From Raillietiella orientalis (Eukaryota), in the NCBI GenBank assembly GCA_036172245.1, contig JAYWIR010000052.1, positions 62,001-126,000 of the forward strand: a stretch of 64,000 bases of DNA. The letters are read 5' to 3'. Shown here piece after piece: positions 260 to 64,000 of the stretch (within the stretch, counting starts at the first letter, position 1; every line of letters starts with the position of its first letter). The translations under genes and the position numbers were made by a program. The notes below the pieces were generated by a model that saw nothing but the letters and a program-made list of their open reading frames with translations, searched no databases and was not told the DNA's origin.

Positions 260-310
260 CTGAGGAGATATATGAGATAATTTGATAATACTTCACATCT
301 GTTATCATAC

Positions 311-542: not shown

Positions 543-627
543 CTAGAAATGAGATCCAATAAGTAAAAAACAAGGAAACATTAATGCCAATTCTTTGACA
601 TCGATTCTGTTAGTATTATCTGCATAC

Positions 628-1722: not shown

Positions 1723-1832
1723 CTGAAACAAGAGGTCACCATAAACACAGTATCCTGAACGCCCTTAAGGTTATGCACATACCTCCTTACTGCTTGAAAA
1801 AAAAAAAAAAAAGAATTACGTTAATTTCCTAC

Positions 1833-14919: not shown

Positions 14920-15057
14920 GTTTCCGTCCGTCGTACCGGGGGTTCGAATCCCGCCCAGGGGGGAGGTTCGACGCCGAGGACGGAGGATTCGTGGGTTTCG
15001 AGTCCCCCATCTCAGGATGACGCTGGTTGGCCTATTCGGGTGCGGTGCTGGTTCACA
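14920..15057 (+). mobile_element. L1/Tx1-like ORF1 C-terminal tail fragment (left part of a host copy)
   Basis: Homologous to 23650-23790 (gggttcgaatcc...ctcaggatgrcgctg); appears to resume near 16660. Confidence 0.5.
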
Positions 15058-23627: not shown

Positions 23628-24700
23628 CTCCTCCCGGCTCGGCTCCAAGCGTCGCGGGTTTGAATCCCTCACGGGGGGGAAGGATCGACGCCCCGCGAAC
23701 GGAGGGTGCGTCGTCGCCGTCGGTTTGTAGCTCCCCTCAGGATGGCGCTGATTGGCTCACATTCGGGCGCGGCGGTTCCGGCGGAAGCTGGAAACTCCCG
23801 GATGCCCCCGTCGAGAGACCAATATCCTGGAACAACCCCGGAGGATCGGAAGTCGACACTCCGGGGTTCTTCCAAGATGGCAAGGAGCCCTTCCGGGTTT
23901 CCCCCCCTCCGAGGGTAAAGAAGAAGCCGTTATCATGGAGCTGGTCGATGCTTCCCTGAGGGGGGGGTAGCCTCTGCAGAGTCGAGAAGCGCGATGCTGC
24001 CTTCGGGGAGCGCCCTCCAGAGGAGTTGGGAAGCATCCCTCTGGGATCCCCATCAGAGAAGGGGTAAACAAGGAGTGGAACCTTCCAGGGGGTCCCTCCG
24101 GAGAAGAAAACGAGGACGACGAAGAGGTTCCCTTCGGAGGCAACCAGGGCGAGGAAGCGTTCCCTCCGCGGTTCCCTAACGAGCGCGAGAGGAGCGGAGT
24201 CCCACCTTCCTCGCGAACCTTCCTGGATTCATGGGGTGACCCCTCCGGGGAGCGACCCCCTAACCTGAAGAGTCACTCGTACCCTCAGGTGACGCCGAAT
24301 GGCGTCAAAGAGCTTGGACCTCCCCTCTAAGGAGGCAGACGGCTCTTCGGCACTTGGCGACCCCCTTTCGTAAAAAAAAAGAGTCCTCCAAAATAGGCAG
24401 AGCTGTTCTTCGTTTCCTGGGGCGCTGGTCCGCACGGAGCCTGGAAACTTCCCTCCTGGAGCATGCGCGCACGGAGGCGAACTGCACTGTGGAAGCGGCC
24501 AATGCCCGACCCGACCCTGACTGCCCAAGAGCCGCACCCGCGTAGCTTTCAGGTCGGCCGGCTGTGTTGCTCCTGGAAAAGCCATGAAATCCTGGGAGGA
24601 GGAGGAGGAACGCGCCGCGTGTCCCGAGACCTCACTGCGCCTGGTGATCCAGCAGACTGAGAGGTCAGGCTTGGCGCTCGGCCCCCGGGGGTCCTCGTCT
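23628..24700 (+). mobile_element. L1/Tx1-like ORF1 acidic tail (GEENEDDEEVPFGGNQGEE) running into a degenerate ORF2 piece (GPHGAWKL)
   Basis: Homologous to 36849-37512, 46320-46900 and 47770-48090. Confidence 0.6.
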
Positions 24701-25610: not shown

Positions 25611-26500
25611 AACAATAATAAAAGTACATTTCAATTAGTCACGTGGCGAAGCACTTGGGTCACCACGTCCGTCCAACTTGCCGGTCACCGGAATGGTGGA
25701 TGGTGAGGTCCGCTCCAGCAGCGAAGGGGGAGGGAAAACTACATACACACACACCAAAAAAAAAAAAGGGGGGGAAAAAGGGGGTGAGAGGAAACGTTTC
25801 TTGAGGAGGGGAGGGCGGGGAAAGGATCACAACACGCAGGGAAACGTCCTCTGCATCCTGCCCAGGATGCTGACAAGTGGTGTGCTTGTGTTGCCAGGTC
25901 TTCAAAAAGATCCGAGCCCAATGGATGGCGTCCCTGCTGTTGTGACCTCTCCTTCCCGCGTCCCGGACTGCCGCGATCCCGCGGACACAGCAGTGGACTG
26001 CGAGGGACGCGGCTGGCGGCTGAGCGACGCGCGTGAGGAGGCGCCCCCCGAATGTATCTGATCCCCAGGGATTTCTAGGATCGTCGACTGACGGTCTCAA
26101 AAGGGTGGGAGGGCGGCACAGTCCACGAGAAGGGGGTACGGGAGGGTGTCCTTTCTCTCCGCACCGATTCCAGTTGGCATCCCCACTCTCCCGCTGTCTG
26201 GTGGTGGAGGCCCTGCCAATGTTGCATGAGATCCCCCCATGCAACCACCAGATCAGGCAAGGTGCCTCGTGAGATTTTATTTCTATCTTTACGCCAAAGC
26301 ACCTCAGCAGCCGGTCTTCTCGCAGCCACCGATCCCAGAGGTCGCTATTTCGATAGGGGATGAGACGAGTCTCGACGAGCGTTTCAGGATCGGTGAGGCA
26401 ATGACCACCATCGGGAAACCGAAGAGACGGAAAGAGCCAGGGGAGGACGGATGGCCTGCGGAGTTCTGTCAGTGCTTCGTGACAGAGATGACCCCCCATT
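25611..26500 (-). mobile_element. Diverged L1/Tx1-like ORF2 C-terminus and 3' UTR
   Basis: NWNRCGEK zinc-finger remnant, ILGRMQRT terminal motif, UTR hairpin at about 25640-25668. Confidence 0.7.
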
Positions 26501-26534: not shown

Positions 26535-27168
26535 CCGGTTACGCTGAGACGTTTATTTTAAAGCAAAGAGCTACAAGGAAGAGGGGAAAAGTACCCCATC
26601 TCCTCAAAAACCAGAAAGACCGGGAAAAAAGTTCTTTCGTGTTAACCACCGGCACGCGGGTGGGCTTCCAAGAAAATTTTACCTGGGTTCTCCTGGTCAT
26701 TTATTTAAAAATAAAATAAACATTTACAGTTTTTTGTGGATGGACCACCGGTCCAACCACGTCCTTTCTGTAGATATCTTGCCGTGTTACCGGTTCGCAG
26801 ATAGCTGAGGTCCATCACGGCAGCAGAGGGGAGGCGGGCAAACAAAAAGAAGAAAAGGAAACAAAAATAAATAAATAAACTCGAAGGAAGAAGGTGTGCA
26901 GGAAGGGGTCACGTCCTGCTGGGGGCGGTCCTCTGCATCCTTTAGAGGATTCCGGCAAGCTCTTGCTGCATACTGTCCCTCCAGATGGGGTCATCTTGTT
27001 GCCATCCTCATGAAGCAAAGTGGATGTGGCACCCCTGTCTCTCGGTCCTCCTTTTGCATGGCTCCAGGAAGAAACGATCTCTCGTAGTCAGCAGGGGACT
27101 GCCGTCGAGGCTGCCTGCCGAAGTGCGTCGCTCAGGAGGAGGGGTCTTAAAGCGTCCCTGGAGTTGCC
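26535..27168 (-). mobile_element. L1/Tx1-like 3' end(s): ORF2 terminus, UTR and terminal motifs
   Basis: 26804-27168 is a near-identical inverted copy of 43602-43965; terminal motif aataaacgtctcagcgtaaccgg at about 26535-26557. Confidence 0.75.
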
Positions 27169-27668: not shown

Positions 27669-29665
27669 ATGGCCGAGTCCGAGTTTTGCAAGGCCTACGG
27701 ATACAACCCCAGCCTAAAAATTATGCTTCCGAGTAACCCACGTTTGGGGTTATCGCAGAGGTCAGCCCAATCGCAGTGCAATGATCGAGCCTCACTCTGG
27801 AGGGATCTCCATGGTGACCAAGATCTCCTCGAAGCCAGGTAAGTACCCCAGCCTACTCTACAAGGTAGGCAGTATTTTCGACGATTTTCGCGTTCCTTCG
27901 AGGAGGAGCTGTGCAGATGGAACGTGACGAAGGAAGACCTGATGGGGCTTACAATCAGAAGCGGGAGTCAGCACGTAGAGCTGACCTGCAAGGAGGCGGG
28001 TCTAGCGCAAAGACCGCTGCGAACCACCGTGAAGATCGAGGGCTACCAGGTCTTTTCCGTTCCTGTGGACGACTCCATCGTGGTTCACCTAAGGGGCATC
28101 ACCGTGCGGATTTCACGGAGCGCCATACGGGAAGAACTCGAGAAAATTCGGCACCGTCCACGCGCTGTGGGCAAAGTTCAACAGATTCCGCGTATTTGAC
28201 AGGATCCTTCGTGGGTTCGCCGCGGTGCGCATCACATCCATAAGTCCTTACTTATGGATTCCTTATAAACTGGTGATCCGTGGAGAACCCATCGACCTCT
28301 AGTGCTTAAGGAAGCCCAAGTACTGCGTCAATTGCAAGGCCACGGGGCGCCTCGAAAAAAGATGCCCCAACATCGCATGCCTCCAGTGCCAAGTGTTGGA
28401 GCACCCCCTGGTGCGTTCGTGCACGCCTCTTCGTCACTCTTGTAGCAGGAACCGAAGGACTCGCGTCTCATTTTTTTTGCCCCGTCTGGAAGGTGAGAAG
28501 ATAAGAACTTAGCCATGGTGGTCACCATGGTAAAGGGGAACAGCTGGATGACCTGCTGTCCTTCCAGCTCTAGAGCCTGGCAAGAGGACACTGTTGGTAC
28601 GTGGTAGATGAAGGAGACCAGCCTGGATGCGTGGAACCTCCTGAGACTCGGCCGTTGACGCCCGCTGCTCGCTGCGGAAGATCCTGGGGAGTCCCAGCGT
28701 CAGCACTTGGTCGGAGCGCACACCCCTTGCCGCAGCGCTGTCCTTCCTGAGGGGGGCGAATGGCAGAGAACCATCGGCTGCGGGGTGGGAAGTTTTCTGC
28801 GATCCTGCAGGATGGAAGAAGAGAACGAGTGGACCACGGGGCAACTGACAGACCTGCGACTCCAAGTGCCCTTCCACGACGACTTGAACGCTGAGGAGAG
28901 CTGTTGGGAATCCCAAGCGAAAAGCTGAAGTGTTCGCGGACAGAAGCACTTCCTCGTCCTGAAGGGGCAGCAGTCGGCACTTCTGCTGTTGCTGCACCAA
29001 GGTATTCCCTGCAACGCCCACGCCGGCATCGCTGGATCCGGGCGGAGGGGGGGAGTGAGAGTCCGGACTGCCGCAGGTGCGGGGAACATGAATCCCCCAT
29101 CCCGCACCTGCTTGTGGACCGTGTTGCCCTCCGGCCCCTATGGGAACGTTTCGGGGCGACCCTACGGATTCCGTTTGGCAATCCCAGGGACGTTTCCAAG
29201 GTCCTCTTCGTGCGGGATAGTCCCTGCCGTCAGCTGCAGCCTGGTCTTTGCTGCATCCGCGGGATTGTGTCGGCGTGTAGCGAAGCCAACCAAGGAAGAT
29301 ACGAGAGGGATGCCATCGAGTCTGCACTTCTTTTTCTGCAGATAGAAGCCAGATGGTCCCACCTGGTTCCTTTGCAGACAGACCCAGCCAGCATCCTGGA
29401 AAGGATGCAGAGGACTCCCTCCAGCGGATCGTGACCCCTTCTCGCCCCTCCAGCATTATTTTTCTGTATTTATTCCATCAAGTGTCATTTTATTTTTTAT
29501 TTTGTTTTCCATCCGCTGCCTGGGCGAACCTCGTTGGCCTGCGAACGCACCGGCAGCCCGGTGCAGGTCCCATCTTTAATGTGGACGTGGTAGGACCACG
29601 AGTATCACTTCCACGACGTCGTGGGTTTGTTTGTTTTAATGAACGCCCCGGGGTGGCTGGGCGGG
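27669..29665 (+). mobile_element. Internally deleted L1/Tx1-like element: ORF1 (RRM-like region and CCHC knuckles) joined to ORF2 C-terminus, zf-RVT and 3' UTR
   Basis: IVVHLRGITVRISRSAIREEL, YCVNCKATG..E..CPNIACLQC in ORF1; PDCRRCGEHESPIPHLLVD and ILERMQRT in ORF2; terminal aatgaacgccccgggg. Confidence 0.8.
27716..27845 (-). pseudogene. U1: U1 snRNA processed pseudogene, truncated at the Sm site
   Basis: Reverse complement reads TACTTACCTGG...GAGTGAGGCTCGATCATTGCACT...GACCTCTGCGAT...CATAATTTTT (5' splice-site pairing end, U1A loop ATTGCAC, Sm site). Stem-loop IV is missing. Flanked by ACCCCAGCCTA direct repeats. Confidence 0.92.
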
Positions 29666-30609: not shown

Positions 30610-31994
30610 GTAACGTTCCGTGCACCTTTCCGACGTGCTGTCACACAATACCCGTAAGGCCCGTCCAGGGCGGGACGTATCCCCCGCGTCTTACCGCTGA
30701 AGTGCCGCTGCTTCCCTTTCAAAAGGGTTCCAGAGAACCGGTGAGGAGGTCAGCATTTCACCAGGTGCTTTAGGGGAGAGAAATTCAGGGAGAGGCGCCG
30801 AGAGTCCTTCGCGCCCACGATTCCCTATGGCCTGCGATCCGCTCTTTGCATCTTCGTGCCAGTACCGTAGTCGATCCCGTTTCACCAGCCAGCCAACCTC
30901 TTTTATCGAACGGGTGCGCCGGAAGAACGTCCGACGGAAAGCGATTCTCGGACCAAACGGAGGTGGAGCGCGTCGTCAAGACTACGACGCCACTTCCGAC
31001 GGTTCGGAGTTTTTCCAGGCGGCGGGAACGTACGGGAACGCATCCCGGACGTCGGGTCGGCCGCCCGGAGGTCAAAGCGCAACGTCCCGAAGAGATTTCT
31101 CTTCCAAAGAAGCATTCCCCGAGCCCCCCGAGGTCTCCGATTCTCGAGGACGGCCGGGTCCACCTCGGAGGAGACCCCATGCGTTTCCCGCAGGAACCAG
31201 CACCGAGCGGGATGGAGGGCTTCCCAGGGACGCGCCTCCTCCTCGTCTCCCCTGGGGGCGTCTGCACGAAACGCGTGCAGCTGAGACACGGCGGAATCCC
31301 AGCGGCCGCTCGGCTTCGGCTGCAGAGACGCAGGTGGAAGCGGAAACTCACGTGCGTCGCGAGACTGCAGCCGGCGCCGTGGCGCAAGAGAAGAGCGACC
31401 ACGGGTGCTGCTGCCACGCCTTTCCATGGACCTCCCAGGCGGGAATGAGCAGCGGATTCTGATTGGGGCCGCAGAAGTACGCCTGGATCTCCGTCCTCCC
31501 CACTTACTGGACTGCCTGGCTGCAGTAGTCCCGTTTTCTCATGGGGAAGGATCATCGGCACGGACGAGGCGGAATGCATCTGCCTTTGGAACAGCAGATA
31601 TGCTCGTAAGCCGTTGAAGGGAATCCTCGGGAACATCAGGAATCTGCTATAGGTTTCGTTCACCCCCTTCACCCCAGTGCTGCCCTCCCTAAGGGGAGCA
31701 ATGGACAGTCGACTGCCAGCGAGGTAGGAAGTGACCTGCGTGAGAGGGAGCTGGAAAAAACATCTGGGTGCGTGGACATCTCGGGAGCTGGACGACGCCG
31801 CGACCCCGAATGTTCCACCAAAAGGATTGCTACGCTGGGGCGTGCAACTGGGACTTCCGGAAAAAGACTTGTAGTGGTCCCCTGGGCTCATGAACACCCG
31901 CACCCTCCCCTTGAAGTGGCAGGAGTCGACATTGATACAGATGCACTGGAGCCTCTCATGCAACGCCCGCCAGCATCATTGAACACGGTGGTGT
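30610..31994 (+). mobile_element. L1/Tx1-like host copy, left part: degenerate ORF1-like sequence and ORF2 C-terminal region up to the zinc finger
   Basis: 31800-31985 matches 15665-15860 inverted; 31440-31790 is homologous to 40860-41190; the ORF1 assignment of the 5' part is weaker. Confidence 0.6.
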
Positions 31995-33694
31995 TCCCAT
32001 CCGGACACGCCGGGGCGTTTATTTCTAAAGTCTGTACATTTGCGGTACGAGGCCCCGCTGCGGCCAATAGTTCATGGGGCCTGCCGGGAAGCCGGTACGC
32101 AGACCGACTCCACACTCGTCGGCAGCGGAGAGGATGGGGGAGAAAACAAAAATAAAAATAAAAAGGAAAACAAAAAAAAAAGAAAAAAGAAACAGTTGGG
32201 TGGGCCGGGAAGGCATCACTGTCCGCTGGAGGAAGAGACCATCCTTTCCAGGATGTCCTCGAGGTCCCTCCGCATAGCTCCCGGATAGGACCATCCAATC
32301 GCGATCCGCGGGTAGCGACCCGGGTGTACGATGGGGTCCCTCTCGCTGCTTCCTCTGTTGGCTGCGCTCCACGCAGCCACAATCCCCTCGGAGGCAGCAG
32401 AGCGCTGCCAGGGCTGAGGCTGGTTGCAGGGTGTCTCGCACGAAGAGGAGGCGTACAACGTCTCTGGGGGGGGGGGGGGAGGGGGCTGCCGACCGACATC
32501 CGGAGGGTCGTAGCAAAACGTTCCCGCAAAGGCCGGAGGGCAGCGCAGTCCAATAACAGGTGGGAGAGGGATTCCTTTTCCCCGCACACTGCTGCACACT
32601 TCTGTCCCACCATCTCCAACGTCCAGTGGTGGCGGCGCGCGTTGCAGGGAAAACCCCGGTGCAACAGCAGCAGCGCCGATTCCTGCCACTTGAGGGGGAA
32701 GGTGGATGCGTCTCCAAATACCGGGGGTCACTTTAGGTCATCCAGCGGAATGCCCAGAAGCTCGCCCCATCTCTGACTTCCTCGCGGAAGGACACTCGGG
32801 GTCGCGTCGTCAGCCAGTTCCCTCATGGTCCAACAGCTTCTCCTTGCCCGCTCTCCGGCAGGAGACTTGCCACCTCGGCGTTCGGCTGCTGCCGAGCGCC
32901 CTCCTCAAGAAGGGCAGCGCCGTGGTTAGTGGGGTCGTCTCCTCCCACGTGCTTCTGGCAAGACACTCGAGCACGTTCCGCAGCGTGCAGCGGGTGTAGA
33001 TGCCGGGTCGCAGGCGGTTCCAGGATTCACCACTTGACTGGTTCAACTTCGCCAACTGTTTCTTCCAGCTATGCGCTGGAGTTGGCGGGGCTGCAGGCCA
33101 TCCAGCCGTTCTCCTTGGCCACGGTGGCCATGCGTTTGAGGAGAAGGCCGCATCTTCTTATTCTCTGGCCGGGGCACAGAAGAAAAGAGGAGAGCCCTCC
33201 CGCTCTGGATACACGGCTGGCGAGGAGGCGGGTCGGAACGCACCAATGGGTGCTCCAGTACTTCGCCGCGATGGCCAACGTTCGCCATCGCAGCTGAATT
33301 TCCATCCGCTCGAGCGTCAGGAGGCCGAGACCGCCATCCCGACGCGGAGCGCACGAGTCCTGCAGAGGCACACGAAGCCTCCTGCTGCCCCACAGGGCGA
33401 TGCGCAGGAGGTCCTTGGTTCTCTTCTTCATCTCGCGTGGTACGGGGCAAACAAAAAGCAGGGGGTGAAGGAGGGGGGCCGCGAACGCGTTCCACACCGC
33501 GGCCCGTTTCCGCAAGTGAAACTTGCCTTCCAGGAACGGGTCGATCGCCGACTCCACTTTCTGGAGACGACCTGACCAGCCTTCTGACTGGCAGAAGTCC
33601 CTCAACGGAACGCCAAGGTACTTCAAGTACCTCTCCGTGGGGATCCCCAGGCGGATCCAGTCAGGTCGTCCTGCCCACGTTGCATCAACCTGGT
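31995..33694 (-). mobile_element. 5'-truncated L1/Tx1-like insertion (copy X): RT thumb to 3' terminus
   Basis: YLKYLGVPL, CAPRRDGGLGLL, CAAVCGEKESLSHLLLDC, UTR and terminal motif; degenerate TSD at 31984-31994 / 33695-33706. Confidence 0.88.
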
Positions 33695-34313
33695 CACGGG
33701 TTGTGTGGACCCGAACTGTGCAAGGTTCGAGGGAGCAGGAATCCTTGCCGCACCTCCTACTGGACTGTGTTGTCCTTCTGCCCCTTTGGGGACGCTTTGC
33801 CACGACCCTCGGGTCCCCCGGTGGCAACGCCAGAGATGCAATGCGGACCCTCTTTTCGTGGGGACACCCTGCAGCCAGCCGCATCCCCAGCAGCACTTTG
33901 CAGCCCACGCGGGATCGTGGAGACGTGGAGCGACGCCAAAGGAGGGAGGAACGACGAGGACACCATCTATTTTGCTATCCTCTTCATGAGGACGGCATCA
34001 AGTTGGCCCCATCTGGGAACCATAAAACAGGTACTTGCCGGTATGCTTACAGGGATGCAGAGGACACCTTCCAGCACACAGTGATCCCTTCCCGAACCCC
34101 CTCCCCATTTTTTGACTGTATGTTTTTTGTTTCATTTTGTTTTCCTTTTGCTTGTTTCCGCTTCCCCTGTGCTGCCGGCGCGAACCTCGCCGGCTTGCAC
34201 GCTGGTTCTCGGCAGGTTCTTTCTGTACATTTTGTAACGTGGCAGGATCATGCATCTTGCAACTGACCTCTATTTTATTTTATTTTTAACAAATTAGCGC
34301 CCCGGCGTGACCG
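33695..34313 (+). mobile_element. L1/Tx1-like host copy, right part: zf-RVT, ORF2 end, 3' UTR
   Basis: DPNCAR..EQESLPHLLLDCV, MLTGMQRT, terminal cgccccggcgtgaccg. Confidence 0.85.
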
Positions 34314-35079
34314 CATGTCAAGTCTTAGACCTCTGGAGGCCACCTCCCGGAAGGAAACGAGCAGTGGATTCCCTCTTGGGGCAGTAGGAAAGCGGCCGGC
34401 CTGCTCTTTCCTGAAGACCGGGTCGCCTTGCGGATTGGCTGGCGCGGGAACGGAAGGAAGAAGCAGGTGGTGCCTGCCGGCCCGGGTAAGCGACGTGGGT
34501 GGTGTCGCGCCGAGTTCGGCGGGGAGTCGCTGCCGTTTAACGCGGTGGCTGCTTTCAGGAGAGCAAACTGCGGCCGTGGGTGAGTCCCCGGCCCTTGGGG
34601 CTCGTGCGGCACCTTCTTCGCTCTTTGACGACGCTCTTCCGGCCTTTGGAGGTTGATCCCTCTTGAGTCCAAAGCTCGGAGCTCCGACGTCCCCTCCGTC
34701 TTGATCCTGCTGGTCGCGGGTCACGGTCAGAGGATCTGCATCGTACACCTCAGGTTTGGCAGCTCTCGGAGTCCTTCGTACAGCCCAGTGCCCCTTCCCT
34801 CGCTGCCTGAATGTCTCTTGCCAAGATCCAAGAACTGGTCCATAAGGAACAGTGGCAGGGGGGGCTCTTGCGGCGCTTCTTCGCGCGCGCGGCTCGATGT
34901 CGCCTGCGGCTTCCTTTGCTGCCCTGCCCGCTGCCTCCGTAGGATCGCGGCGGAGAGGAACCGCGCCGAAAGTGGCCCAGTCGAAAGGCAAGGCGCCACC
35001 GCAGTCGTCTGCTCCTTCGTAAGGAAGGCGGCAAGACGGCCGCGTCTCCGCCCAGCAGGAGAAGGAAGCTGCCGACATC

Positions 35080-36395
35080 CTCCAGAGGATGCCGAGGGCG
35101 CCAGGGAGAAATCTGCGGACCCCGGTTGGTACCTCCAGGGACGTTGCCAAGCTCCTCTTCGTGCGGAAGAAGCTCCTCCTTCCGGCTGCAGCCCCAGCAG
35201 CCCTTTGTTGGGTTCGTGATGGCCTGGAGCGACACGGAAGGAGGAGGAAGAAACGAGCGGGACACGGTCCAGCTTGCACTTCCGCTTCCTGCGGATGGCA
35301 ACCAGACGGACCCATCCGGATGGCATGCCGATGGACTAGCCGGCATCCCGAACAGGATGCAGGGGACTCCCTCCCTCCAGCGGGCAGTGATCCCTTCCCG
35401 ACACTCCAGAGTGTTTTCGTTTACAGTCGTACCTCGGTACTCGATGGTTTCAGAACTCGTCCAACTCTGTGCTGGTCTCATTCCTACGAGGAAAAAATGT
35501 TTCCACACGGCGGCTCATGCTCGGAACTCGACACTCCACCCTCATGATGAAACTAGTGAACGCTTCCGTCTCATGGTAGCTCTCGAAAACTGCCGACGAA
35601 CACTTCCATAGAGTGCCTCCCGAATCGTTCCTTTTTGTGTGCTTTCTGCTCATCTTAAGCATTAATCAAGGATCCTAACATTGTAAAAAAGGGTACCAGG
35701 AAGTCTAGAAAGGAATTCGTTTGGTACTCGTCGGTTTCGGCACTCGTCACGAGTTCCGGAACGAATTGCCGACGAGTACGGAGGTACCACTGTATTTATT
35801 TTTATTTTCTTTTTGTTTTTCTCCCTCTCCTATGCTGTCTAGGTGACCCTCATAACAGAGCTGGGGGCGAACTGCTCGATATTCCATCAGGAGACCTGGA
35901 GTGACCCCCGGTGCTCAAGAACAGCAGCGCCCTCCCCCCTGAAATGGTATGGATTGGCACTTCTGCTGTCGGGAAGGTCTTCCCTGTAACTCCCACTCCG
36001 ACATCGGTGGACCCGGGAGGGTAGGGAGAGAGGATGAGACTGGATTGTCGCAGGTTCGGGGAATGGGAATCTTCCCTCCCTCACCTGCTTGTGGACCGCG
36101 TTGCCCTCCGGCCCCTGTGGGGACGTTTCGGGATGACCCGGTTGGCATCCCCAGGGACGTTTCCAGGCTCCTCCTCATGCGGGAGATTCCCAGTTCGTCA
36201 TAGGACGGGATTTTCGTATTTTCTCCTTCTTTTACATCCGCCTCCTCCCCCACCTCTCCTGTGCGGACCCTGTCTGGGGAGCGGTGCCGCCAGGAAGGTT
36301 CCCTTCGCGGTGGCAGCCCCTGCGAAACCACCGCGAAGGAAGGCGTTTCCTCTTGTGAATTTCTTCTCAAGAAACGCCTCGGCGTGACCGGGTGA
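35080..36395 (+). mobile_element. Two tandem L1/Tx1-like 3' fragments, the first interrupted by a MITE
   Basis: IPNRMQGT end and T-rich UTR; second zinc finger DCRRFGEWESSLPHLLVD; hairpin at 36302-36339; terminal aagaaacgcctcggcgtgaccgg. Confidence 0.7.
35424..35792. mobile_element. Tc1/mariner (pogo/Tigger-like) MITE, 369 bp
   Basis: TIRs CAGTCGTACCTCGGTACTCG / CAGTGGTACCTCCGTACTCG (18/20 match), TA on both sides (35422-23, 35793-94), no coding capacity. Confidence 0.85.
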
Positions 36396-36848
36396 AAGCG
36401 ACCCTGACCGGGTGAAAGTGACCCTGCCCGTTTGGGTATCACGACCGCGGCCGATGCAGGCGAGCAGACGCGCACGAGCGGGTGGGAGGCTTAGCGAGGT
36501 CCCGCCGCCTGTAAACACGCCTCTTCTGCCGACGCACCGTCGGCCGAAGAGGAGAGTCAAAAGCACCCAGGTCGAGAGAGGGTTGCCCCGAAATGTTGGG
36601 GTGGACCGTTCCTGGGGGGAGGGAGAGGAAGAAAACTCACTCCTCCCCGGTTTTCCAGGACAAGGTGTGGAGCTGTCCCTGAAACACTCGCGTGTCCCCC
36701 TCCTCCTCGATTAGCGGTGAAGGATCTCTTCCTCTGAGTCATGCATGACCTTTCCCACCCTGCGGCACGTTTCGGGTCAGCCGGGATCCTGCCGAGACCC
36801 CGCGCAGAGCCGCGGTGAAGGTGGAGGCTCTTCAGGAGCCATCCACGC

Positions 36849-37950
36849 CACCCGAGGGTGCGTATGACGCTTCAGGTTAGAGGGTCGCTCCCCGGAGCGG
36901 TCACCTCATGAATCCAGGAAGGTTCGCGAGGAAGGTGGGACTCCGCTCCTCTCGCGCTCGTTAGGAAACCGCGGAGGGAACGCTTCCTCGCCCTGGTTGT
37001 CGCCGAAGGGAACCTCTTCGTCGTCCTCGTTTTCTTCTCCGGAGGGACCCCCTGGAAGGTTCCACTCCTTGTTTACCCCTTCTCTGATGGGGATCCCAGA
37101 GGGATGCTTCCCAACTCCTCTGGAGGGCGCTCCCCGAAGGCAGCATCGCGCTTCTCGACTCTGCAGAGGCTACCCCCCCCTCAGGGAAGCATCGACCAGC
37201 TCCATGATAACGGCTTCTTCTTCACCCTCGGAGGGGGGGAAACCCGGAAGGGCTCCTTGACATCTTGGAAGAACCCCGGAGTGTCGACTTCCGATCCTCC
37301 GGGGCTGTTCCAAGATATTGGTCTCTCGACGGGGGCATCCGGGCGTTTCCAGCTTCCGCCGGAACCGCCGCGCCCGAATGTGAGCCAATCAGCGCCATCC
37401 TGAGGGGAGCTACAAACCGACGGCGACGACGCACCCTCCGTTCGCGAGGCTTCGATTCTTCCCCCCCGTGCGGGAGTCGAACCCGCGACGTCTGGCTCCG
37501 AGCCGGGAGGAGACTGTCAACGGGGACGCTCGCACACTACCCTTGCCCGGGGCTTCGCTCGAACTCATGCGGAAGAAGGGAAGACCCCAGCTCGGGCTCA
37601 CAGCTGGTGGGCACCCTCATGCGGTCCGACCGAGGAGCTTGCTTATTGGCGCGATGTTTCTCCCCTCAGCTAGCCAGCTCCGTCCATCGGGCGGGAACAG
37701 AGGGATTGCATAGGGGATGGTCCTTTCGCGCCTCAGGCTCGCGCTGAATTTCGGGATGTTCCAGTGGTGGTGGGCTACTTCAGATTTGCATAAATGCGGG
37801 CACCAAGGGACCGTCGGACAAAGGGTCGTCGCGCGACCCTGCAGGTGTCGTCCCCTTCCCAGTTCCGGTCAGCATTCGCGGAGCGGTGCGCGGTCCGCCC
37901 GAGCTCGAAACTCCGGAGGAAACTCCCCGAGCTGGGAGTCTGCCCTGACT
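36849..37950 (-). mobile_element. L1/Tx1-like ORF1 fragment including the acidic tail
   Basis: 36849-37512 is an inverted near-copy of 23628-24291; upstream LRRERTIPYAIPL is ORF1-like. Confidence 0.65.
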
Positions 37951-38499
37951 CCCGGCTGCCTCTGTCGACGTCTTCCGGTCCTCCATGGTTCATCGTGTCC
38001 CGCTCACGGTTGCCGGGGCGACGTCTGCGGACGAAGACGCTTCGCAAAGATGCGCTCAGCCACTTCCTTCTGCCGCTCTGCTTTAGGAGCTGCGGCGCCG
38101 CCGCCGCCACCTCCGCCGCGCGTCTCCGAGACAGGTCATCACCCCATGAACCGACCCGGGTTTCCCACGGCACGCGTCAGCGGCTTCCGGATACCACGGA
38201 TCGGAAGGAAGAAGAGGCGCTCGCATGCAGTCATTGGAAAGGATCGTCGTCGCCTTGACACGACAGTGCTGATGAGGGTCATCGGTGTCCGTCGTTCCTT
38301 CGTTTCAAATCCGACGCTGGACGCCCCCCATCTCCTTCTTGGCTTCCTTTTGCAGGTACATCCACCTTGCAGCCCGTCCTCGCATGGGCGGCTGCCATCT
38401 CGGAGACCACTCTTCGCTGTCAACGGTTGCATCAGAGCATATGCGTGCCGTGACGAACGGCACTGCGATGGTTGTGCCATCCCACCCGTCAAGAGTCCT

Positions 38500-39290
38500 C
38501 CCGGTGCGAAGAACCGCCGCAGCAGGTCGCGGGCGGTGTCTTCCTGGCGCAGGAGTGCTGCTGCCCAGCCTCCTCCACCACGGTTCCCGGAGGGCACCGC
38601 TGTCCCAAAGCAGGTGCGGCGACGACCCTACCGACCTGCACCAGGAACGGCAGTTCGGGGATGCACCCCCTGCGGAAGCGAGGTTGCAGGCGCTCGTTGC
38701 ACTGGAATCTCCCGTGGAAGAAGAGCAGCAGGGCCTGTTTCCAGGGCAGAGGGAACGCAGAAGTGCCCAGGCACTGGGAGGGGGAGGAAGGGCCGCAAGT
38801 TCTTCAGGGGGCAGCACTGAGAAGTGGAATCCTCGTCTCTAGGGCATGCGGAGTGGCAGCATCCGCCAGCTCGCGCGCGTCCTCCGACCTCCAAGGAGTT
38901 TCGTCCTTCCCGCGATGGCTCAGGACGAAAACTTCCACCTCGCCGGTCGGCGACTGCCGTCGCTTGCCCTGAAGGTTGCCCTGCAAAGAGGGGTGTGGCT
39001 GCCAGGGTCGACCAGTTCGCCGCATCCTCCATCGCCACTTCCAGTGGTCGTGGCAACAGATTTCGCAGGCGGTGAAGATGTTCAGGGTGCATTCCCTGGA
39101 ATGCAGCCCAGGACCCAACAGCCTCCTGCCGCTAGGCGTTAAAGTTCGTCAGGTAACGAGATGGTTGGTTACCACCACTAGGGAGGATTGCTTCAGGGGG
39201 GAAGCCAAATCCCCGCATTCCGCAGCGGGTGCCCTGCAGCAATGAAAACAGTCCTTCGCTTCCAGAACATCTCCTCAGGATGAGGCAGTC
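38500..39290 (-). mobile_element. Strongly diverged L1/Tx1-like ORF2 C-terminal fragment
   Basis: PNCRSWCRSVGSSPHLLWDSGALREPW zinc-finger remnant. Confidence 0.5.
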
Positions 39291-39539
39291 GGGGAGGGTC
39301 ACGCTGGGTCACTCGGGGGCGTTTCCTTTATAAAAAATAAAGCAATCGGGAACATGCTGACTCCCAACCAAAGGCAAAAGAATTTCAAAGGGAGGGTTTA
39401 CCAACGTGCGGGGATGAAGAAAAGTCCGGAGCGGGAGAGGGGATCGGGGGGCAACAAAAAATAAAAATAAAATAAATCCACTGGGATAGGAGAGGGATTT
39501 TTAGGTCCGCTCCGTGTGCACCCTGAACGGTCGGGGAGG

Positions 39540-40300
39540 TTTGTCACCCGGATATGCAGAAGCATTTATTATAAAAATTATAATAAAAGTCGATATTTTT
39601 TACAATACTGTGGTAGAACACGTGGTTGTTGTACCCGCCTTTTCCCGCTTTCGATGCGGCAGGACGCTTCCTACCTTGCGGAAAGGCCCTTGCGTCCTTA
39701 ATGGAGGACAGCACTGGGACAAAAGGGGCGAACGACACTCGCAGCAGTTTGGGTGGGCTGCACGCGATCTTCCACGGGCGAACACTTGTTGGGACCGGCG
39801 CGCAGACCGGCGAGGTCCATTGCCGCAGCGAAAGGGGAGGGAAAACTCCAAAACAAACAAAAAAAAAGATGGGGAAAATGTTTCTTCGGGGGAGGAGAGG
39901 AGGGAAGGGATCACGGTACGCAGGGAGACGTCAATTGCATCCTGTCCAGGATGCTGACAAGTTCTGTGCTTGTTTGTCCTAGGTGGAGCCATCGGGAAGC
40001 GGTCTTAAAGGAGATCCCCCCCCAGTGGATGACGTCTCTATCGTTCCTCCCTCCTTTGGCGTCGCTCCACGTCTCCACGATCCCGCGTGGGCTGCAAAGT
40101 GCTGCTGGGGATGCGGCTGGCTGCAGGGTGTCCCCACGAAAAGAGGGTCCGCATTGCATCTCTGGCGTTGCCACCGGGGGACCCGAGGGTCGTGGCAAAG
40201 CGTCCCCAAAGGGGCAGAAGGACAACACAGTCCAGTAGGAGGTGCGGCAAGGATTCCTGCTCCCTCGAACCTTGCACAGTTCGGGTCCACACAACCCGTG
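39540..40300 (-). mobile_element. L1/Tx1-like zf-RVT, ORF2 end and 3' UTR (3' part of a second host copy)
   Basis: ESLPHLLLDCV, ILDRMQLT, UTR fold. Confidence 0.8.
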
Positions 40301-41986
40301 ACCAGGTTGATGCAACGTGGGCAGGACGACCTGACTGGATCCGCCTGGGGATCCCCACGGAGAGGTACTTGAAGTACCTTGGCGTTCCGTTGAGGGACTT
40401 CTGCCAGTCAGAAGGCTGGTCAGGTCGTCTCCAGAAAGTGGAGTCGGCGATCGACCCGTTCCTGGAAGGCAAGTTTCACTTGCGGAAACGGGCCGCGGTG
40501 TGGAACGCGTTCGCGGCCCCCCTCCTTCACCCCCTGCTTTTTGTTTGCCCCGTACCACGCGAGATGAAGAAGAGAACCAAGGACCTCCTGCGCATCGCCC
40601 TGTGGGGCAGCAGGAGGCTTCGTGTGCCTCTGCAGGACTCGTGCGCTCCGCGTCGGGATGGCAGTCTCGGCCTCCTGACGCTCGAGCGGATGGAAATTCA
40701 GCTGCGATGGCGAACGTTGGCCATCGCGGCGAAGTACTGGAGCACCCATTGGTGCGTTCCGACCCGCCTCCTCGCCAGCCGTGTATCCAGAGCGGGAGGG
40801 CTCTCCTCTTTTCTTCTGTGCCCCGGCCAGAGAATAAGAAGATGCGGCCTTCTCCTCAAACGCATGGCCACCGTGGCCAAGGAGAACGGCTGGATGGCCT
40901 GCAGCCCCGCCAACTCCAGCGCATAGCTGGAAGAAACAGTTGGCGAAGTTGAACCAGTCAAGTGGTGAATCCTGGAACCGCCTGCGACCCGGCATCTACA
41001 CCCGCTGCACGCTGCGGAACGTGCTCGAGTGTCTTGCCAGAAGCACGTGGGAGGAGACGACCCCACTAACCACGGCGCTGCCCTTCTTGAGGAGGGCGCT
41101 CGGCAGCAGCCGAACGCCGAGGTGGCAAGTCTCCTGCCGGAGAGCGGGCAAGGAGAAGCTGTTGGACCATGAGGGAACTGGCTGACGACGCGACCCCGAG
41201 TGTCCTTCCGCGAGGAAGTCAGAGATGGGGCGAGCTTCTGGGCATTCCGCTGGATGACCTAAAGTGACCCCCGGTATTTGGAGACGCATCCACCTTCCCC
41301 CTCAAGTGGCAGGAATCGGCGCTGCTGCTGTTGCACCGGGGTTTTCCCTGCAACGCGCGCCGCCACCACTGGACGTTGGAGATGGTGGGACAGAAGTGTG
41401 CAGCAGTGTGCGGGGAAAAGGAATCCCTCTCCCACCTGTTATTGGACTGCGCTGCCCTCCGGCCTTTGCGGGAACGTTTTGCTACGACCCTCCGGATGTC
41501 GGTCGGCAGCCCCCCAGAGACGTTGTACGCCTCCTCTTCGTGCGAGACACCCTGCAACCAGCCTCAGCCCTGGCAGCGCTCTGCTGCCTCCGAGGGGATT
41601 GTGGCTGCGTGGAGCGCAGCCAACAGAGGAAGCAGCGAGAGGGACCCCATCGTACACCCGGGTCGCTACCCGCGGATCGCGATTGGATGGTCCTATCCGG
41701 GAGCTATGCGGAGGGACCTCGAGGACATCCTGGAAAGGATGGTCTCTTCCTCCAGCGGACAGTGATGCCTTCCCGGCCCACCCAACTGTTTCTTTTTTCT
41801 TTTTTTTTTGTTTTCCTTTTTATTTTTATTTTTGTTTTCTCCCCCATCCTCTCCGCTGCCGACGAGTGTGGAGTCGGTCTGCGTACCGGCTTCCCGGCAG
41901 GCCCCATGAACTATTGGCCGCAGCGGGGCCTCGTACCGCAAATGTACAGACTTTAGAAATAAACGCCCCGGCGTGACCGGATGGGA
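40301..41986 (+). mobile_element. Copy X', inverted duplicate of 31995-33694
   Basis: ORF translations are identical to the X ORFs except isolated residues (GGLG vs GSLG). Confidence 0.9.
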
Positions 41987-41988
41987 AC

Positions 41989-42690
41989 TCCCTCGCTTTG
42001 CAGTGGTGGAGGTGCGCTTTGCATGGGGATTCCCCCACGCAACACCGGCAGCGCCAACTCCCGATACTTGAGAGGGAGGGCTCCACTGTTCCAGCACGCT
42101 GGGGGACATCCCACCTCCTCCGGAGGGATGGCGAGGCAGCTCACCCCTTAGGCGCGACACTCGGTGTCGCAGCGTCCGTGAGCTGCTCAGTTGTCCACGC
42201 TCTCTGCCTCGCTCGCTCAGTGGATCTTCTCCCGTGTGGAAACTGACTTCTGTAGCCAGGCAGTGCAGTTCGTGGAAAAGCAGGAAATCCAGGTACACCA
42301 AGGCAAGCAACCATCCGACGACCTCCCTGTGTTTCACAGGGGGGTCCCGAATCAGGTTCACAGGGCTTTCTTCAGGAGGTCCTCGGTTCGCTTCCTGATG
42401 TTGGGTGGGACGGGGTAAACAAAAAACAGGGGGCGGAGGAGGGGAGCCGCGAACGCGTTCCACACCGCGGTTCGTTCCTGCAAGTAGGACCTGCTGTTAC
42501 GGAACGGACCTAGCGCTATGTCCACTTTTCAGAGACGGCTGGACCAGGGTGCTTCTGCAACGCAGAATTCCCCCAGCGGAACGCCAAGGTACTTGATTTA
42601 CCCGCCCTTGGGGATCCGCAAGTGGATCCAGTCCAACCTACGCTGCACCAACTAGCACCAGTGACGACTTCGCCTTGTTCAGCTCAAGTG
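41989..42690 (-). mobile_element. L1/Tx1-like RT thumb/C-terminal fragment (5' part of the second host copy)
   Basis: KYLGVP and WNAFAAPLLRPLFFV motifs on the minus strand. Confidence 0.7.
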
Positions 42691-43059: not shown

Positions 43060-44030
43060 GGTCAACCCGTGAGCAGAATTCGCATCTTCCCTTTGTGGCC
43101 CTGGCAACCAGAAGACGAGACTCGTCCGGAGCACGCGGCACGCAAGGCCGCGTACCCTGTTTTCCCGAAATACCCTCCCTGAGGGAGCACATAGGCAGCA
43201 GCATTCCGGCAAGGTGGGAGGTTACTATGGAGATCTCTGGCAGGAAAAAAGGACTGGGCGAGTGGATGATGGGCAAGCTTACAGACACTGTGACCGCAGG
43301 TGTCCCACCTCGTGGACATTTTCTCTGGAGCGAGCTTGTGGATATTCCGAAGGAAGACCTGCAGTGGTCCCCAGCGTGTTGGGACAGTGGCACTCTCCCA
43401 TGAAAGTGGCGGGAGTCAGTGCTGATGCTGCTGCACTGGGGACTCCTGTGCTACGCCAGCCGACATCATTGAAGCCGGGTGTGTGTGGACCCCAACTGTG
43501 GCAGGTGCGGGGAACGGGAATCCCTCCCGCACCTGCTGGTGGACTTTGTCATTCCCTGGCCCCTCTGGGAACTCTTCGCCGCGACCCTAGGAACCCCCGG
43601 CGGCAACTCCAGGGACGATTTAAGGCCCCTCCTCCTAAGCGACGCACTTCGTCAGGCAGCCTCGACGGCAGTCCCCTGCTGACTACGAGAGATCGTTTCT
43701 TCCTGGAGCCATGCAAAAGGAGGACCGAGAGACAGGGGTGCCAAATCCACTTTGCTTCATGAGGATGGCAACAAGATGACCCCATCTGGAGGGACAGTAT
43801 GCAGCAAGAGCTTGCCGGAATCCTCTAAAGGATGCAGAGGACCGCCCCCAGCAGGACGTGACCCCTTCCTGCACACCTTCTTCCTTCGAGTTTCTTTATT
43901 TATTTTTGTTTCCTTTTCTTCTTTTTGTTTGCCCCCTCCCCTCTGCTGCCGTGATGGATCTCAGCGGTCTGAGAACCGGCAATCCGGCAGACTCCCGTTG
44001 GAATGGACGTGGTATTTCACCCGGTTCTGC
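43060..44030 (+). mobile_element. L1/Tx1-like ORF2 C-terminus, zf-RVT and 3' UTR
   Basis: DPNCGRCGERESLPHLLVDF; UTR fold. Confidence 0.85.
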
Positions 44031-44049: not shown

Positions 44050-44720
44050 AAGGTCACAATTAAAGCGTACAGGTTTACAACAACGTGGTAGAACACTTGG
44101 TTCTACCACGTGCGTGAAACTTGCCAAGACCGGTATGTGGATCGGCGAGGTCCGTTTCCACGGCGACAGGAAGGGAAAAACCGAAGCAAGAAGACAAACA
44201 ATCAAAAAACCAAAAAAGGGGGAGAAAATGCTTCCTGAGGAGGGGGGTGGGTTTATCGTCCGGATGTGCAGGGTGATAAACCCATAACTCATAACAATAA
44301 TAAAAGTACATTTCAATTAGTCACGTAGCGAAGCACTTGGGTCACCACGTCCGTCCAACTTGCCCGTCACCGGAATGGTGGATGGTGAGGTCCGCTCCAG
44401 CAGCGAAGGGGGAGGGAAAACCACATACACACACACCAAAAAAAAGGGGGGGAAAAAAAGGGGGTGGGAGGAAACGTTTCTTGAGGAGGGGAGGGCGGGG
44501 AAGGGATCCCATTTCGCCGGGGGACATCCTCTGCATCCTGCCCAGGATGCTGACAAGTGGTGTTCCTGTGTTGCCCAGGTGGGACCATCTCGTGGCGGTC
44601 ATCAGGAAGAATTGTTGCCCAGTGGATGGCGTCATTGAATGCACGTGGTTGGGCCACCGGTCCAACCAGAATGTTTGCAAGCGTTTATTTTTCACATTAA
44701 ATAAACGCCCCTCTGGCGCG
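44050..44720. mobile_element. Cluster of short L1/Tx1-like 3' UTR fragments (two minus, one plus)
   Basis: Hairpin at 44083-44111; 44293-44575 is a direct copy of 25611-25895; aataaacgcccc at about 44700. Confidence 0.7.
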
Positions 44721-46308: not shown

Positions 46309-47310
46309 CCTTCATGTTAGGGGGTCATCCCCGGAGGGACCACCCCATGAATCCGTGAAAGCTTCCGAGAAAGGACGGAGTCCGTTCCTCTCTTACTCCT
46401 GGTAGAGGAACTCTGGAGGGAACACATCTTCTCCCTGGTTGTCGCCGAAGGGAATCTCTTCGTCGTCGTCGTTTTCTTCTCCGGAGGAAACCCCCGGAAA
46501 GGGTCCGCCCCTCTGGAGAGAGCCCCAGAGGGACGCTTCCTGATATTGTCTGAAGGGTCGCTCCCGTAGGGAGCGGCGCGCATCTTGACACTCTGGAGAG
46601 GGGACGGCTCCCTCTTCACAACCAGAGGGGAATCCCCGAAGGATTCCTTGATGTCCTGGAAAGTCAACTTGCAATCCGAGCCAGCCAACCGGGGCATCCG
46701 GGTTTTCCACCAGTGCGGTCGCACCCGAACGGGCCAACCAGCGCCACCCTGCGGCGGAGGTGGGAGGGAACTGGAAAACGAAAGACGCACCCCCCATTTC
46801 TCGGAGCGCAGACCCTTCCCCCGATGGAATTCGAACCCGTGATGACGCTTTGGTGCCACGCCGGCGGAGGCCGTCGCTATGGCAAAACTCGAGAACTCGG
46901 GAACTTGAAGCAGGTCATCCTCGGTCATGATGTGCATCGAAAGCCCGGAGCTGCTCGAGGCGCACAAAGTGGTCCTGAGAGGTTTCGGAAGCCTCCGCTG
47001 TGGTGCCGCACCCTGAAACAGGCCGACGCACCAACATGCGAAAACACAAAAACACCTCAGTGATTCTCAGGTGAGATTAGAAGAACGGGCGGTGGCCTTT
47101 CGGTGTCCAGGTAGATGGTGGAATACATCAACGCGAAGGTTCAGTTGAGAGCGCGCACCAGAGGGGAGGGGGGGGGGATGGCGACCTCGAATTTCAGTCG
47201 GGTGCGGGTCCGAGCGTCACTCACGTTCAGCGCGATTTGCCAAAACACATCGGCGAGCCGTCGATATGAATTTGTTGGGACCACGTGGACGAGACAAGTC
47301 GTGTCGAAGA
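46309..47310 (-). mobile_element. L1/Tx1-like ORF1 (RRM-like region, knuckle remnant, acidic tail); host continues below 45357
   Basis: DTTCLVHVVP...IYLDTERPPPVLLI...ACFR followed by GEENDDDEEIPFGDNQGEDV. Confidence 0.65.
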
Positions 47311-47769
47311 AGTGAAGAAAAAAAAATGCTTGCAGCCAATGGCAGCTTGATTTTTTTATTTTTATCTTATGTTCTCCATCCCCCCCCCCCCCCCCAATGC
47401 TCTTCATCGTGGTCGTGACCTCCGAAAACAAAAGTTCAATGCAAGAAGAGGCAGAAAGGATACCTCCTTCCTCCCGCTCGCCTCCTCGGTAAAGGGGGGC
47501 GCGTGCTCTCTGAGCCTCCAGGAAGGCGAGCGTGGCCCTGGCAAGCCCGCGCGAGGGTGCGGAATCCCCAAAGGTCACGCGCGCTCGCTGGCGGCACAAT
47601 GACCAATCATACTGCAGCTGCTGCGCATTTCGCGTTCCCGCCTCCCGGCCCAGCCGTCCCGACGAGACGTCCCAGCGCGGCGAAGGTCCGCCAGACTCCC
47701 CTCCTCTCCCTCTTTCCCTTGGAGCAAAGAGCGGACTCTTCGTCCCGCGTCAGCGCTTCAAATTATGGA

Positions 47770-48900
47770 GGGAATAGCCCGTGAATCCAGGAAGGCTCCC
47801 GAGGAAGGAGGGAGTCCGTTCTTTTCACGCTCGGTAGGGAGCCCCAGAGGGAACACATCCTCGCCCTGGTTGCCTCCGAAGGGAATCTCTTCGTCGTCGT
47901 CGTTTTCTTCTCCGGAGGGAACCTCCGGAAAGGGTCCGATCCCTGTTCTCCCCTCCTCTGAAGGGGATCCCAGAGTGACGCTTCCCGATTCCTCTGGAGA
48001 GCACTCCTCGAAGGCAGCAGCGCGCTTCTCGACACTCTGCAGAGGAGACCCCCCCGATGGGGGCATCGATCAGCTCCGTGGTACTCGGTGGAGGGTCCAT
48101 CATCACCACCGGAGAGGTGGACCCGGAAGGGAATCGGCGCTCCCTGCTTCTTGGAAGAACCCCAGAAGGTCCACCTCCGGAGTCCTTCCAGGAACCGGAT
48201 GTCCCCGTTGATCGCAGAAGGTCAGAACCCTTCTTTCGCCTGCGAAAGAAGCATTCCGACGTCTTGACGCACGTTCCGACGTCGCCTCGACCCGAGTTCC
48301 GACGTCTTGACCTGCGACGTCTGCCTTCTAGCCAGAGCCTGCGTCACTTTGCACCAACAGTCGGAACTCGGGAAGGTGAAACCGAGAGTCATCAGCAAGA
48401 AGCAGTGAATGCGTTGCTCTTGGCCTTAATACAGCGGGCAAGATTCACTCGTGCTGACTGCACGGGAAGTCGAAGCTTGCTGCCAGTCCGGTGAAACTTG
48501 AAGGGCACCTCGCCCGGATGCATTTCCTGAGCCCTACTCACCGCCGCCACCAGCGCGTCCGGTTTGGTTTCGCTCCTTCGGTCGGGCTCGCGTCACGGAA
48601 GAGCTCTCCGCCCGCCCAACCTTCCGGCTCGCGCACCGCAGGCGCCACCCGTGCAAGTAGTGGCTCGTGCGACCGCTCAGGGGCCAAAAGCAAACCGACG
48701 GATCCTGGCGAAGCGCTGGGCGCCACCATCCGTGCTGCGGGGCAGCTTCGAGCCGTGCCGGAGACCAAGTCGTGCTCTTGCGCGTGACGCGCTGGCCACT
48801 CGGCGGAGGAAACGGGCCGGGCGTCTTTTGCTTTCAGTCGACGTCAGGAGGTGCGTAATTTATAGTCAAGCTTCCTCGCGTGCTCTTTAGGAATAATCGC
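47770..48900 (-). mobile_element. Further L1/Tx1-like ORF1 fragment with acidic tail
   Basis: MELIDAP-type motif and GEENDDDEEIPFGGNQGEDV at 47770-48090; upstream limit uncertain. Confidence 0.6.
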
Positions 48901-63175: not shown

Positions 63176-63454
63176 ATGGATTCTGAATTAGTAAGAAATG
63201 CACATATCTTTGTCAACAAAGTCGATTCATTTGTTGTAAAGGCACCTGTTTTGCCATCACTTCCATCTGATCTCAAATTCATACTAGGCTTTGTCACCTC
63301 TTTTGCAGTGTATTTGTGTTTGCATAGACATTATTTCCAAAAAGACCTTTCCACTAAAACTGCATTTCATTTACTGTTGCATGATGCTTGGCACTATGTT
63401 TTGTTATTTACTATCTTGTCAGCTTTGCTGATGGTTGTTTTAGTGCTATGGTGA
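63176..63454 (+). CDS. Candidate 92-aa small membrane protein (two hydrophobic segments), unrecognised
   Basis: ATG-to-stop ORF in AT-rich, CpG-poor DNA; I recognise no homology. Confidence 0.25.
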   Translation: MDSELVRNAHIFVNKVDSFVVKAPVLPSLPSDLKFILGFVTSFAVYLCLHRHYFQKDLSTKTAFHLLLHDAWHYVLLFTILSALLMVVLVLW

Positions 63455-64000
63455 TTGTGTTGTGATTTTCTCTGATTTTCATGTGCCCCATTTTAGTGGA
63501 TGAAAAACTTTGGTGATCTTACGGAGCCATTTTGTAATTAATTTCCAAATGAAAATATATCCTGCTGCAAGTTTGCACAAAAATCTCAAAATATTTTAGA
63601 AGGTGCTGCTTGTGCTCGTATTCCAAACTGTTATATTGATGCTCAGAGGCTTGTTAGTTGCTTGTATGCACCACATGAATCATGTACTTTTTCGTGTTTT
63701 TCTCAATATAGGTGGTAAAATTACGTTTAATAAGTAGCTGGTCTTTTATACAGTTTGGCATAAAGCTGAGCATCAACTGTTTGTAGTGAATGCATGTGTG
63801 TGTGTGTGTGTGATAACAACTGTAGTCACTCTTAAATACTAGTATAGTGTCATTGCTGGTGATTGATGGATCAGAAAGAATATCTTGAGAAAAAAAAGCA
63901 TTCTTTGTAGCAGAAATGGAGTGGAAACAGATTCAGTCATGTCAAAACATGTGAATTTAAATAAATTTGAAAACTGAATGTAAAGCTTTAAAATGTATTT

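Follow-up and report, generated by a model that had tools for sequence, protein, structure and literature searches.

In the homing of group I introns and homing-endonuclease genes, an insert is copied into its cognate site and part of its flank is co-converted. The present case concerns a copy with some of these properties among long interspersed nuclear elements (LINEs) of Raillietiella orientalis. The window, that is, the whole stretch of DNA analysed, comprises 64,000 nucleotides of contig JAYWIR010000052.1 (positions 62,001 to 126,000; G000:C52:62001-126000 in the 210-Mb assembly), and it holds an inverted repeat, both arms of which contain the same LINE fragment, X, nested in two different host LINEs, H1 on the left and H2 on the right.

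Gene conversion between neighbouring copies has been described for Alu elements, where it acts within about 10 kb and depends on distance (Aleshin and Zhi 2010, cited in PMC6598467 and PMC8230782). Target-specific LINEs of the Tx1 clade are also known, with Tx1 inserted in Tx1D, Tx1-Mar in Mariner-N4_AMi and Keno in U2 (PMC4494074).

A recent one-way copy from H1 into H2

On the evidence of sequence comparison, the right arm arose by a recent, one-way, homology-registered copy from the left locus to the right one, without crossover. Self-comparison of the window revealed that related repeats cluster between about 15 and 48 kb, with a single inverted match dominating (Table 1). A preliminary description of this DNA had claimed a near-perfect inverted repeat of about 1.96 kb with a 6.1-kb spacer, and the alignment bears this out. 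The 14-nt poly-G expansion that it listed is present in the left arm but is not a pure G run, and its scattered substitutions are exactly two. Together, these are all the differences between the arms, and the substitution divergence is 0.10%. The right-arm base at 32005 is found in 22 of 22 scored relatives, the left-arm base at 40663 in 26 of 26, and a long G run in none of 15; private changes are present in both arms. No other genomic copy of the arm more than 90% identical was found among the 40 that were scored out of 3,879 candidates, the next-best standing at 90%.

The site of X, which lies antisense in the zinc-knuckle region of H1, is defined by an empty sister copy, H0. Across 33954/33955, H0 and H1 remain 89-98% identical; against H2, the identity of H0 falls to about 60% at 40040. 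H2 belongs to another subfamily and is only 56-59% identical to H1. The flanks were further compared in 98 intact copies, aligned as separate fragments; these copies are related, and the test reads subfamily membership only. Preference for the upstream part of H2 went with preference for its downstream part (Spearman 0.67), and the 260-bp flank tracked H1 (+0.59), not H2 (-0.62). For the upstream (A) and 3' (C) parts of the two hosts, the rank correlations were 0.52 (A1-C1), 0.45 (A2-C2), -0.05 (A1-C2) and -0.02 (A2-C1). At both junctions, the flanks resemble the homeologous host (z = 8.7 and 21 against shuffles). On the opposite side of the tract, identity ends 2 nt past the X terminus, and those 2 nt are common to both target sites. 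The left locus keeps both copies of the target-site duplication (TSD). Hence, from the comparison with H0 and the flank correlations, it was concluded that the left locus is the donor, that 260 bp of H2 were replaced and that the spacer is ancestral; as there was no crossover, the spacer is not inverted.

These results agree with the recent, homology-directed conversion into a paralogue proposed in the preliminary description. Its right arm of X plus about 260 bp of left-host flank (33695-33954) was recovered, as was the embedding of this arm in a different, diverged host, with the addition that H2 is itself rearranged. That description had made its reading depend on right-hand flanks that are collinear parts of one element, and the upstream and downstream flanks of H2 do fall in one subfamily group. 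Two points had to be amended: the right copy, said to be without a TSD, lacks the 3' copy but has carried the 5' copy along, and the 6-kb segment, said to be invertible, could invert in principle, but its flanks show the ancestral orientation.

H2 is no clean element: between 42147 and 42359, about 430 bp are missing, and the piece at 39640-39768 is located elsewhere in sister copies. The best sister of H2 is 87% identical upstream and only 69% downstream, and other H2-like 3' parts reach 71-77% over the main stretch. Because no close H2 sister recovers the overwritten 260 bp, microhomology at the junction is unreadable.

The product is a young inverted repeat of dead sequence, with no function indicated; a hairpin RNA and inversion are possibilities that any young inverted repeat offers. 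The spacer reading frames that were scanned gave no Pfam family at E<=0.01. A scan of 52 open reading frames (ORFs) at the same threshold gave one weak zf-RVT match and otherwise no family, 20 further ORFs gave one match at E 0.024, and a tRNA search found none. The GC content is 53-64% across the LINE cluster (15000-49000) and 34-40% at the window edges (1-4000 and 62001-64000).

Table 1. Features of the inverted repeat and its host elements (positions in the window; UTR, untranslated region)
Feature	Position	Strand	Remarks
Left arm (donor)	31993-33954		1,962 bp; X, 260 bp of host H1 and 2 nt of target site
Right arm (recipient tract)	40041-41988		1,948 bp; reverse complement of left arm
Spacer	33955-40040		6,086 bp; 3' ends of H1 and H2, decayed LINE pieces, repeats; ancestral orientation
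X, left copy	31995-33690	-	5'-truncated L1/Tx1-type LINE; end of reverse transcriptase (RT) to zinc knuckle, and 3' UTR
X, right copy	40305-41986	+	3' end exactly at the subfamily hot-spot position in H2
H1, part upstream of X	31662-31994	+	
H1, 3' part and terminus	33955-34320	+	
H2, part upstream of site	41987-42679	-	Internally deleted
H2, 3' part and terminus	39540-40040	-	Terminus of another subfamily
H0, empty sister of H1	15056-16569	-	Reference for the unfilled site
Co-copied H1 flank	33695-33954	+	260 bp; zinc-knuckle region of H1 ORF2; 89% identical to H0, running on into 33955 and beyond
H1-type flank in right locus	40041-40300	-	Replaced H2 sequence; in register at 40040/40041
TSD copy at X 3' end	31984-31994	+	Left locus only
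TSD copy at X 5' end	33695-33704	+	Degenerate, 9/11 positions; carried to right arm
G-rich expansion	32467-32480	+	14 nt, 13 G and one A; private to left arm
Left-derived substitution	32005	+	T left, A right at 41976; 10 nt from X terminus
Right-derived CpG-type substitution	40663	+	Left-arm C at 33332

The X family, its insertion sites and near-identical tracts

Judged by its reading frames, which are broken by stops and frameshifts, X is a dead, decayed, 5'-truncated L1/Tx1-type LINE, antisense in the older LINE H1. It has a GC-rich terminus and no poly(A), and corresponds to positions 3941-5619 of a 5.6-kb copy, L138, at 83-84% identity. It is of L1/Tx1 type in domain layout and target bias, and a candidate member of the Tx1 clade. 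L138 has an upstream ORF of 577 aa, for which no Pfam match was found, and a fragmented ORF2 that matches APE, RT and, weakly, zf-RVT (PF03372, 4e-11; PF00078, 1e-22; PF13966, 3e-4, the last below the curated cut-off). Through L138, the family is thus seen to have an ORF1 and an ORF2 with APE, RT and a C-terminal zinc knuckle. A protein search gave four matches, three at 27-32% identity and one, unnamed, at 67%. The 5' end of X (position 3941 of L138) lies downstream of the APE domain, so that X encodes no endonuclease. A fixed 5' end for X was first suggested by matches that mostly start at one base, and was dropped since most relatives extend upstream. A stem-loop at the LINE terminus, noticed by eye, was given no support by folding (z 0.70, 1.24 and -1.38).

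The exact 25-nt pattern of the terminus occurs 368 times in the genome. A sample of 73 termini was taken in genome order on contigs C1-C9, and 71 remained after two with duplicated flanks were dropped. Five in-register target classes take up 28 of the 71 flanks, and four of the classes map to fixed positions in LINE ORF2. The target class follows the subfamily: of 70 pairs with a common target, 38 also belong to one subfamily, whereas 2,000 shuffles gave 6.7 on average and 23 at most; some contig-end pairs in this test may be duplicates of one insertion. Within X's own subfamily, 5 of 18 sampled ends are at X's site, a share above the 20% used for a target class. These lie in diverged hosts with TSDs of 11-26 bp, and were therefore taken as independent insertions. 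The subfamily motif fits the H2 site better than the H1 site. Given this hot spot, the same site in two hosts is expected even without homing, and a family copy may have been resident in H2 before it was overwritten. In loci picked by their upstream sequence, 40 of 44 sites were empty and 4 unclassified, one of these showing a terminus on inspection.

The LINE subfamilies share the conserved terminus but differ in its last four bases, each with its own preferred site (window 15000-46300, L141-L210). On the L138 copy, the preferred sites are at 1992, 3280 and 5036 (antisense) and 2287 (sense); a fifth repeated target does not map to this copy. The window also carries a retrocopy of U1 small nuclear RNA (snRNA) at 27717-27845 on the minus strand, antisense in a LINE ORF1 fragment; it ends in the Sm site, without the last stem-loop, and is flanked by a 10-bp TSD (27707-27716 and 27846-27855).

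Near-identical tracts were found to be local elsewhere in the genome. The 73 termini form 34 pairs less than 300 kb apart, and 4 of these share a tract of at least 300 bp at 98% identity or more; none of the 2,594 other pairs does (Fisher p 2e-8; the pairs are not independent). Over all compared loci, whose selection was based in part on resemblance to the window, tracts of at least 150 bp with 96% identity or more number 16 within a contig, all within 250 kb and 11 of them inverted. Between contigs they number 87, of which 69 (young, mostly contig-end loci) were set aside and 18 remain. Tracts at 96-100% occur on seven contigs.

The ends of 14 tracts were inspected, namely 13 of the 16 same-contig tracts and a 98% patch shared by H0 and H1. 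Five of them, X included, end at a LINE terminus, five stop 8-54 nt short of it and four have no recognised terminus within 160 nt. Where tracts stop short by 8-54 nt, the copies keep different ends as a result, and target-primed reverse transcription (TPRT) cannot explain tracts that stop short of a terminus or are without one. Several tracts end in register in flanks that are 52-59% alike, gaps counted. At L204, two independently inserted copies are about 95% alike overall but 98-100% over the last 600 bp through the terminus, from which it follows that overwriting of a resident copy also yields an exact 3' boundary. Local, patchy tracts that often spare the terminus are what DNA-templated conversion gives, and they agree with published findings on neighbouring Alu copies (PMC6598467, PMC8230782).

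Further patches lie in the window itself. A near-identical patch joins 23628-24294 and 36846-37512, and the repeat recurs at 46310-46614 and 47767-48179; it did not map to the LINE reference and gave no Pfam match. Others join 26780-27168 to 43602-43989, 25611-25899 to 44293-44580 and 15211-15424 to 33941-34155. The four extra patches are 92-98% identical, and three are inverted. Outside the window, L211/L212 (G000:C2:3846949 onward against 3868421 backward) are inverted duplicates, 99.9% identical over at least 4.55 kb, most of which has no match to the LINE reference. L088 (G000:C52:227589-229616) is an 819-bp perfect inverted repeat that surrounds a 391-bp spacer and ends at LINE termini. 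The middle is rearranged and related to H2, and one flank carries repeats resembling TTAGG, the arthropod telomere unit. L189, near G000:C5:5443060, has a 42-bp insert resembling a bare LINE terminus with duplicated target, within a tract shared with L132. L068/L069 (G000:C16:1-1345 against C8:2974644-2975988) match at 100% over 1,345 bp where a contig ends, which probably reflects overlap in the assembly.

Possible mechanisms of the copy

The copy was probably made by local, intrachromosomal, DNA-templated, non-crossover gene conversion from the left locus. Four features of gene conversion are seen here: one-way transfer with an intact donor, flanking markers that are not exchanged, a near-identical tract with sharp ends inside homologous sequence, and distance dependence. 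The DNA template and the repair pathway are inferred. A break in or at H2 would start the repair, for which the inverted locus on the left, 6-8 kb distant along the chromosome, would be copied in a non-allelic, non-crossover manner like that of synthesis-dependent strand annealing (SDSA). The X tract is distinguished by running across the insertion junction of the donor and taking host flank along.

Within gene conversion, two versions are nearly balanced. In the slightly favoured one (sub-model E), the hot spot in H2 would already have been occupied by a member of X's subfamily, and homology to X would have nucleated the repair, the tract running from the LINE terminus through the 5' junction of X into 260 bp of host. 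For it speak the overwriting analogues of the L204 type and position 41976, which lies 10 nt from the end and has retained the consensus base. In the other (sub-model H), the endonuclease of the family would have acted in trans and cut an empty H2 at the hot spot, so that the insert was gained as in homing. The low occupancy of the sites (40/44 empty) favours this version, and so does a terminal variant that both arms share and that occurs in 1 of 22 scored relatives. When the position of 32005 was set against the terminal variant in an approximate likelihood comparison, the two versions scored about equally, and the outcome was not counted as evidence.

Several observations weigh against gene conversion in one or both of these forms. 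The same low occupancy makes a resident copy in H2 less expected. The hosts, at 56-59% identity, are far under the optimum of 89-100% quoted in PMC8230782, so that the junction at 40040 needs very lenient pairing of a microhomology type, and the original H2 letters at that junction are gone. The tract is one-sided and ends at most 2 nt from the X terminus, like an RNA-templated insertion, and the shared terminal variant fits copying of the very end. Lastly, the 18 near-identical tracts that remain after 69 were set aside join different contigs.

A more specific form of the homing version, which might be termed passive homing, is held here only tentatively. An endonuclease of an active subfamily would cut the empty hot spot, reverse transcription would fail, and the break would be repaired from a filled neighbouring paralogue. 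If so, dead, truncated inserts would spread through nested clusters by DNA copying alone, crossing hosts less than 60% identical and leaving a one-sided co-conversion tract without TSD, and LINE clusters would gain a second, RNA-free route of growth.

Ordinary TPRT would account for a 3' junction at the terminus and for the preferred site; a TSD with recipient sequence on both sides is not seen, the 5' side of the right copy being of H1 type. A modified RNA route is unlikely. A read-through transcript from the spacer, with at least 260 nt of H1 and X, would be reverse-transcribed by the family's ORF2 protein at the H2 hot spot, and the end of the complementary DNA would pair in register with homeologous H2 sequence and replace it. 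One-sided co-conversion is a feature of group II intron retrohoming in yeast, and a 3' junction exactly at the hot spot, no TSD and co-copying on the 5' side alone would all be expected. The U1 snRNA retrocopy with its 10-bp TSD shows that foreign RNAs get inserted. A precedent exists in R1, where precise 5' junctions result from annealing of the target with upstream target sequence in the transcript, but over 6-27 nt of identical sequence and not 260 nt at less than 60% (PMC2718515). Moreover, the copy landed 6 kb from its source although thousands of hosts were possible (first-look candidates for the 3' part number 1,737 for H1 and 966 for H2), near-identical pairs are local, and the other insertions at X's site carry TSDs of 11-26 bp.

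Slightly less probable still is a replication template switch or a repair duplication without a real homology search, in which a stalled or broken end would copy 1.95 kb and be rejoined by microhomology. The proximal donor and the lack of TSD and poly(A) are the signature of repair-mediated duplication (PMC2671141), and the inverted orientation of 11 of the 16 local tracts would be favoured by a fold-back switch. Against this, both junctions are in register with the homeologous host (z = 8.7 and 21), and 260 bp were replaced, compared with the deletions of 1-15 nt tabulated in PMC2671141. It is improbable that assembly or polishing produced the repeat from one real copy, or merged two diverged copies in the consensus. 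The near identity of the arms, the long homopolymer runs in the window and the 100% tract at a contig end elsewhere (C16/C8) would suit such an artefact, but both arms bear private changes of known polarity, one of them a CpG transition, similar tracts at 96-100% occur on seven contigs, and a collapse would not put an in-register junction inside a 57% identical host. Inverted duplications typically flank a segment inverted by staggered breaks, but inversion of the spacer with duplicated breakpoints, by such breaks or by crossover, predicts H1 upstream sequence joined to the H2 3' part, and since the flank rank correlations across the 98 intact copies show the opposite, it was rejected.

Comparison with known systems

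The preliminary description calls the copy homing-like. For this, the shared site is weak evidence: it is a hot spot of X's subfamily, so that H2 may have had a resident copy, and local overwriting is frequent. True homing into an empty site is a possibility. In group I intron homing, the insert is likewise copied to a cognate site with co-conversion of flank, which here covers 260 bp on one side and at most 2 nt on the other, and the break is plausibly made by a site-specific endonuclease. However, X has no endonuclease of its own (an enzyme in trans is possible), and its partners are not near-identical alleles but paralogues diverged to 56-59%; hence, this is not homing in the strict sense. 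No description of homing of target-specific LINE inserts between paralogous copies was found in a search of the open literature. With an empty recipient, dead passengers would move among paralogues by a homing driven by the endonucleases of target-specific LINEs.

Among LINEs, the X family resembles the Tx1-clade elements in its ORF2 with APE, RT and zinc knuckle, its TSDs and its share of more than 20% of flanks in one target class (PMC4494074). It differs in that its target is a fixed ORF2 position in sister LINE subfamilies, mostly in antisense. The GC-rich clusters of mutually nested LINEs resemble the Zepp clusters of Coccomyxa, which occur once per chromosome, whereas here there are many clusters per contig and several subfamilies, each with its own site (PMC3446292).

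Repair-mediated duplication (Pace et al. 2009, PMC2671141) shares with the present case the proximal donor (here 6 kb away), the absence of TSD and poly(A) at the acceptor, an acceptor inside a transposable element (TE) and a proposed origin of the SDSA type. There, the copy enters an arbitrary break with the loss of 1-15 nt; here, it landed in register and replaced 260 bp. Non-allelic conversion of Alu elements is similar in the one-way replacement of parts by a neighbour, in a rate that falls with distance and in the hybrid elements that result (PMC6598467, PMC8230782). The present tract differs in being 1.95 kb long, crossing a nested junction and ending in a host 56-59% identical, and partners in this genome are up to 250 kb apart.

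It follows for this genome that near-identical LINE copies are not to be equated with recent retrotransposition, and that a site found filled in two hosts does not prove two independent insertions. The case also shows in-register repair between sequences less than 60% alike. All in all, the locus most likely gives a clear example of a process already known, the non-allelic conversion of one TE copy by a neighbour, and such local copying is common in this genome.

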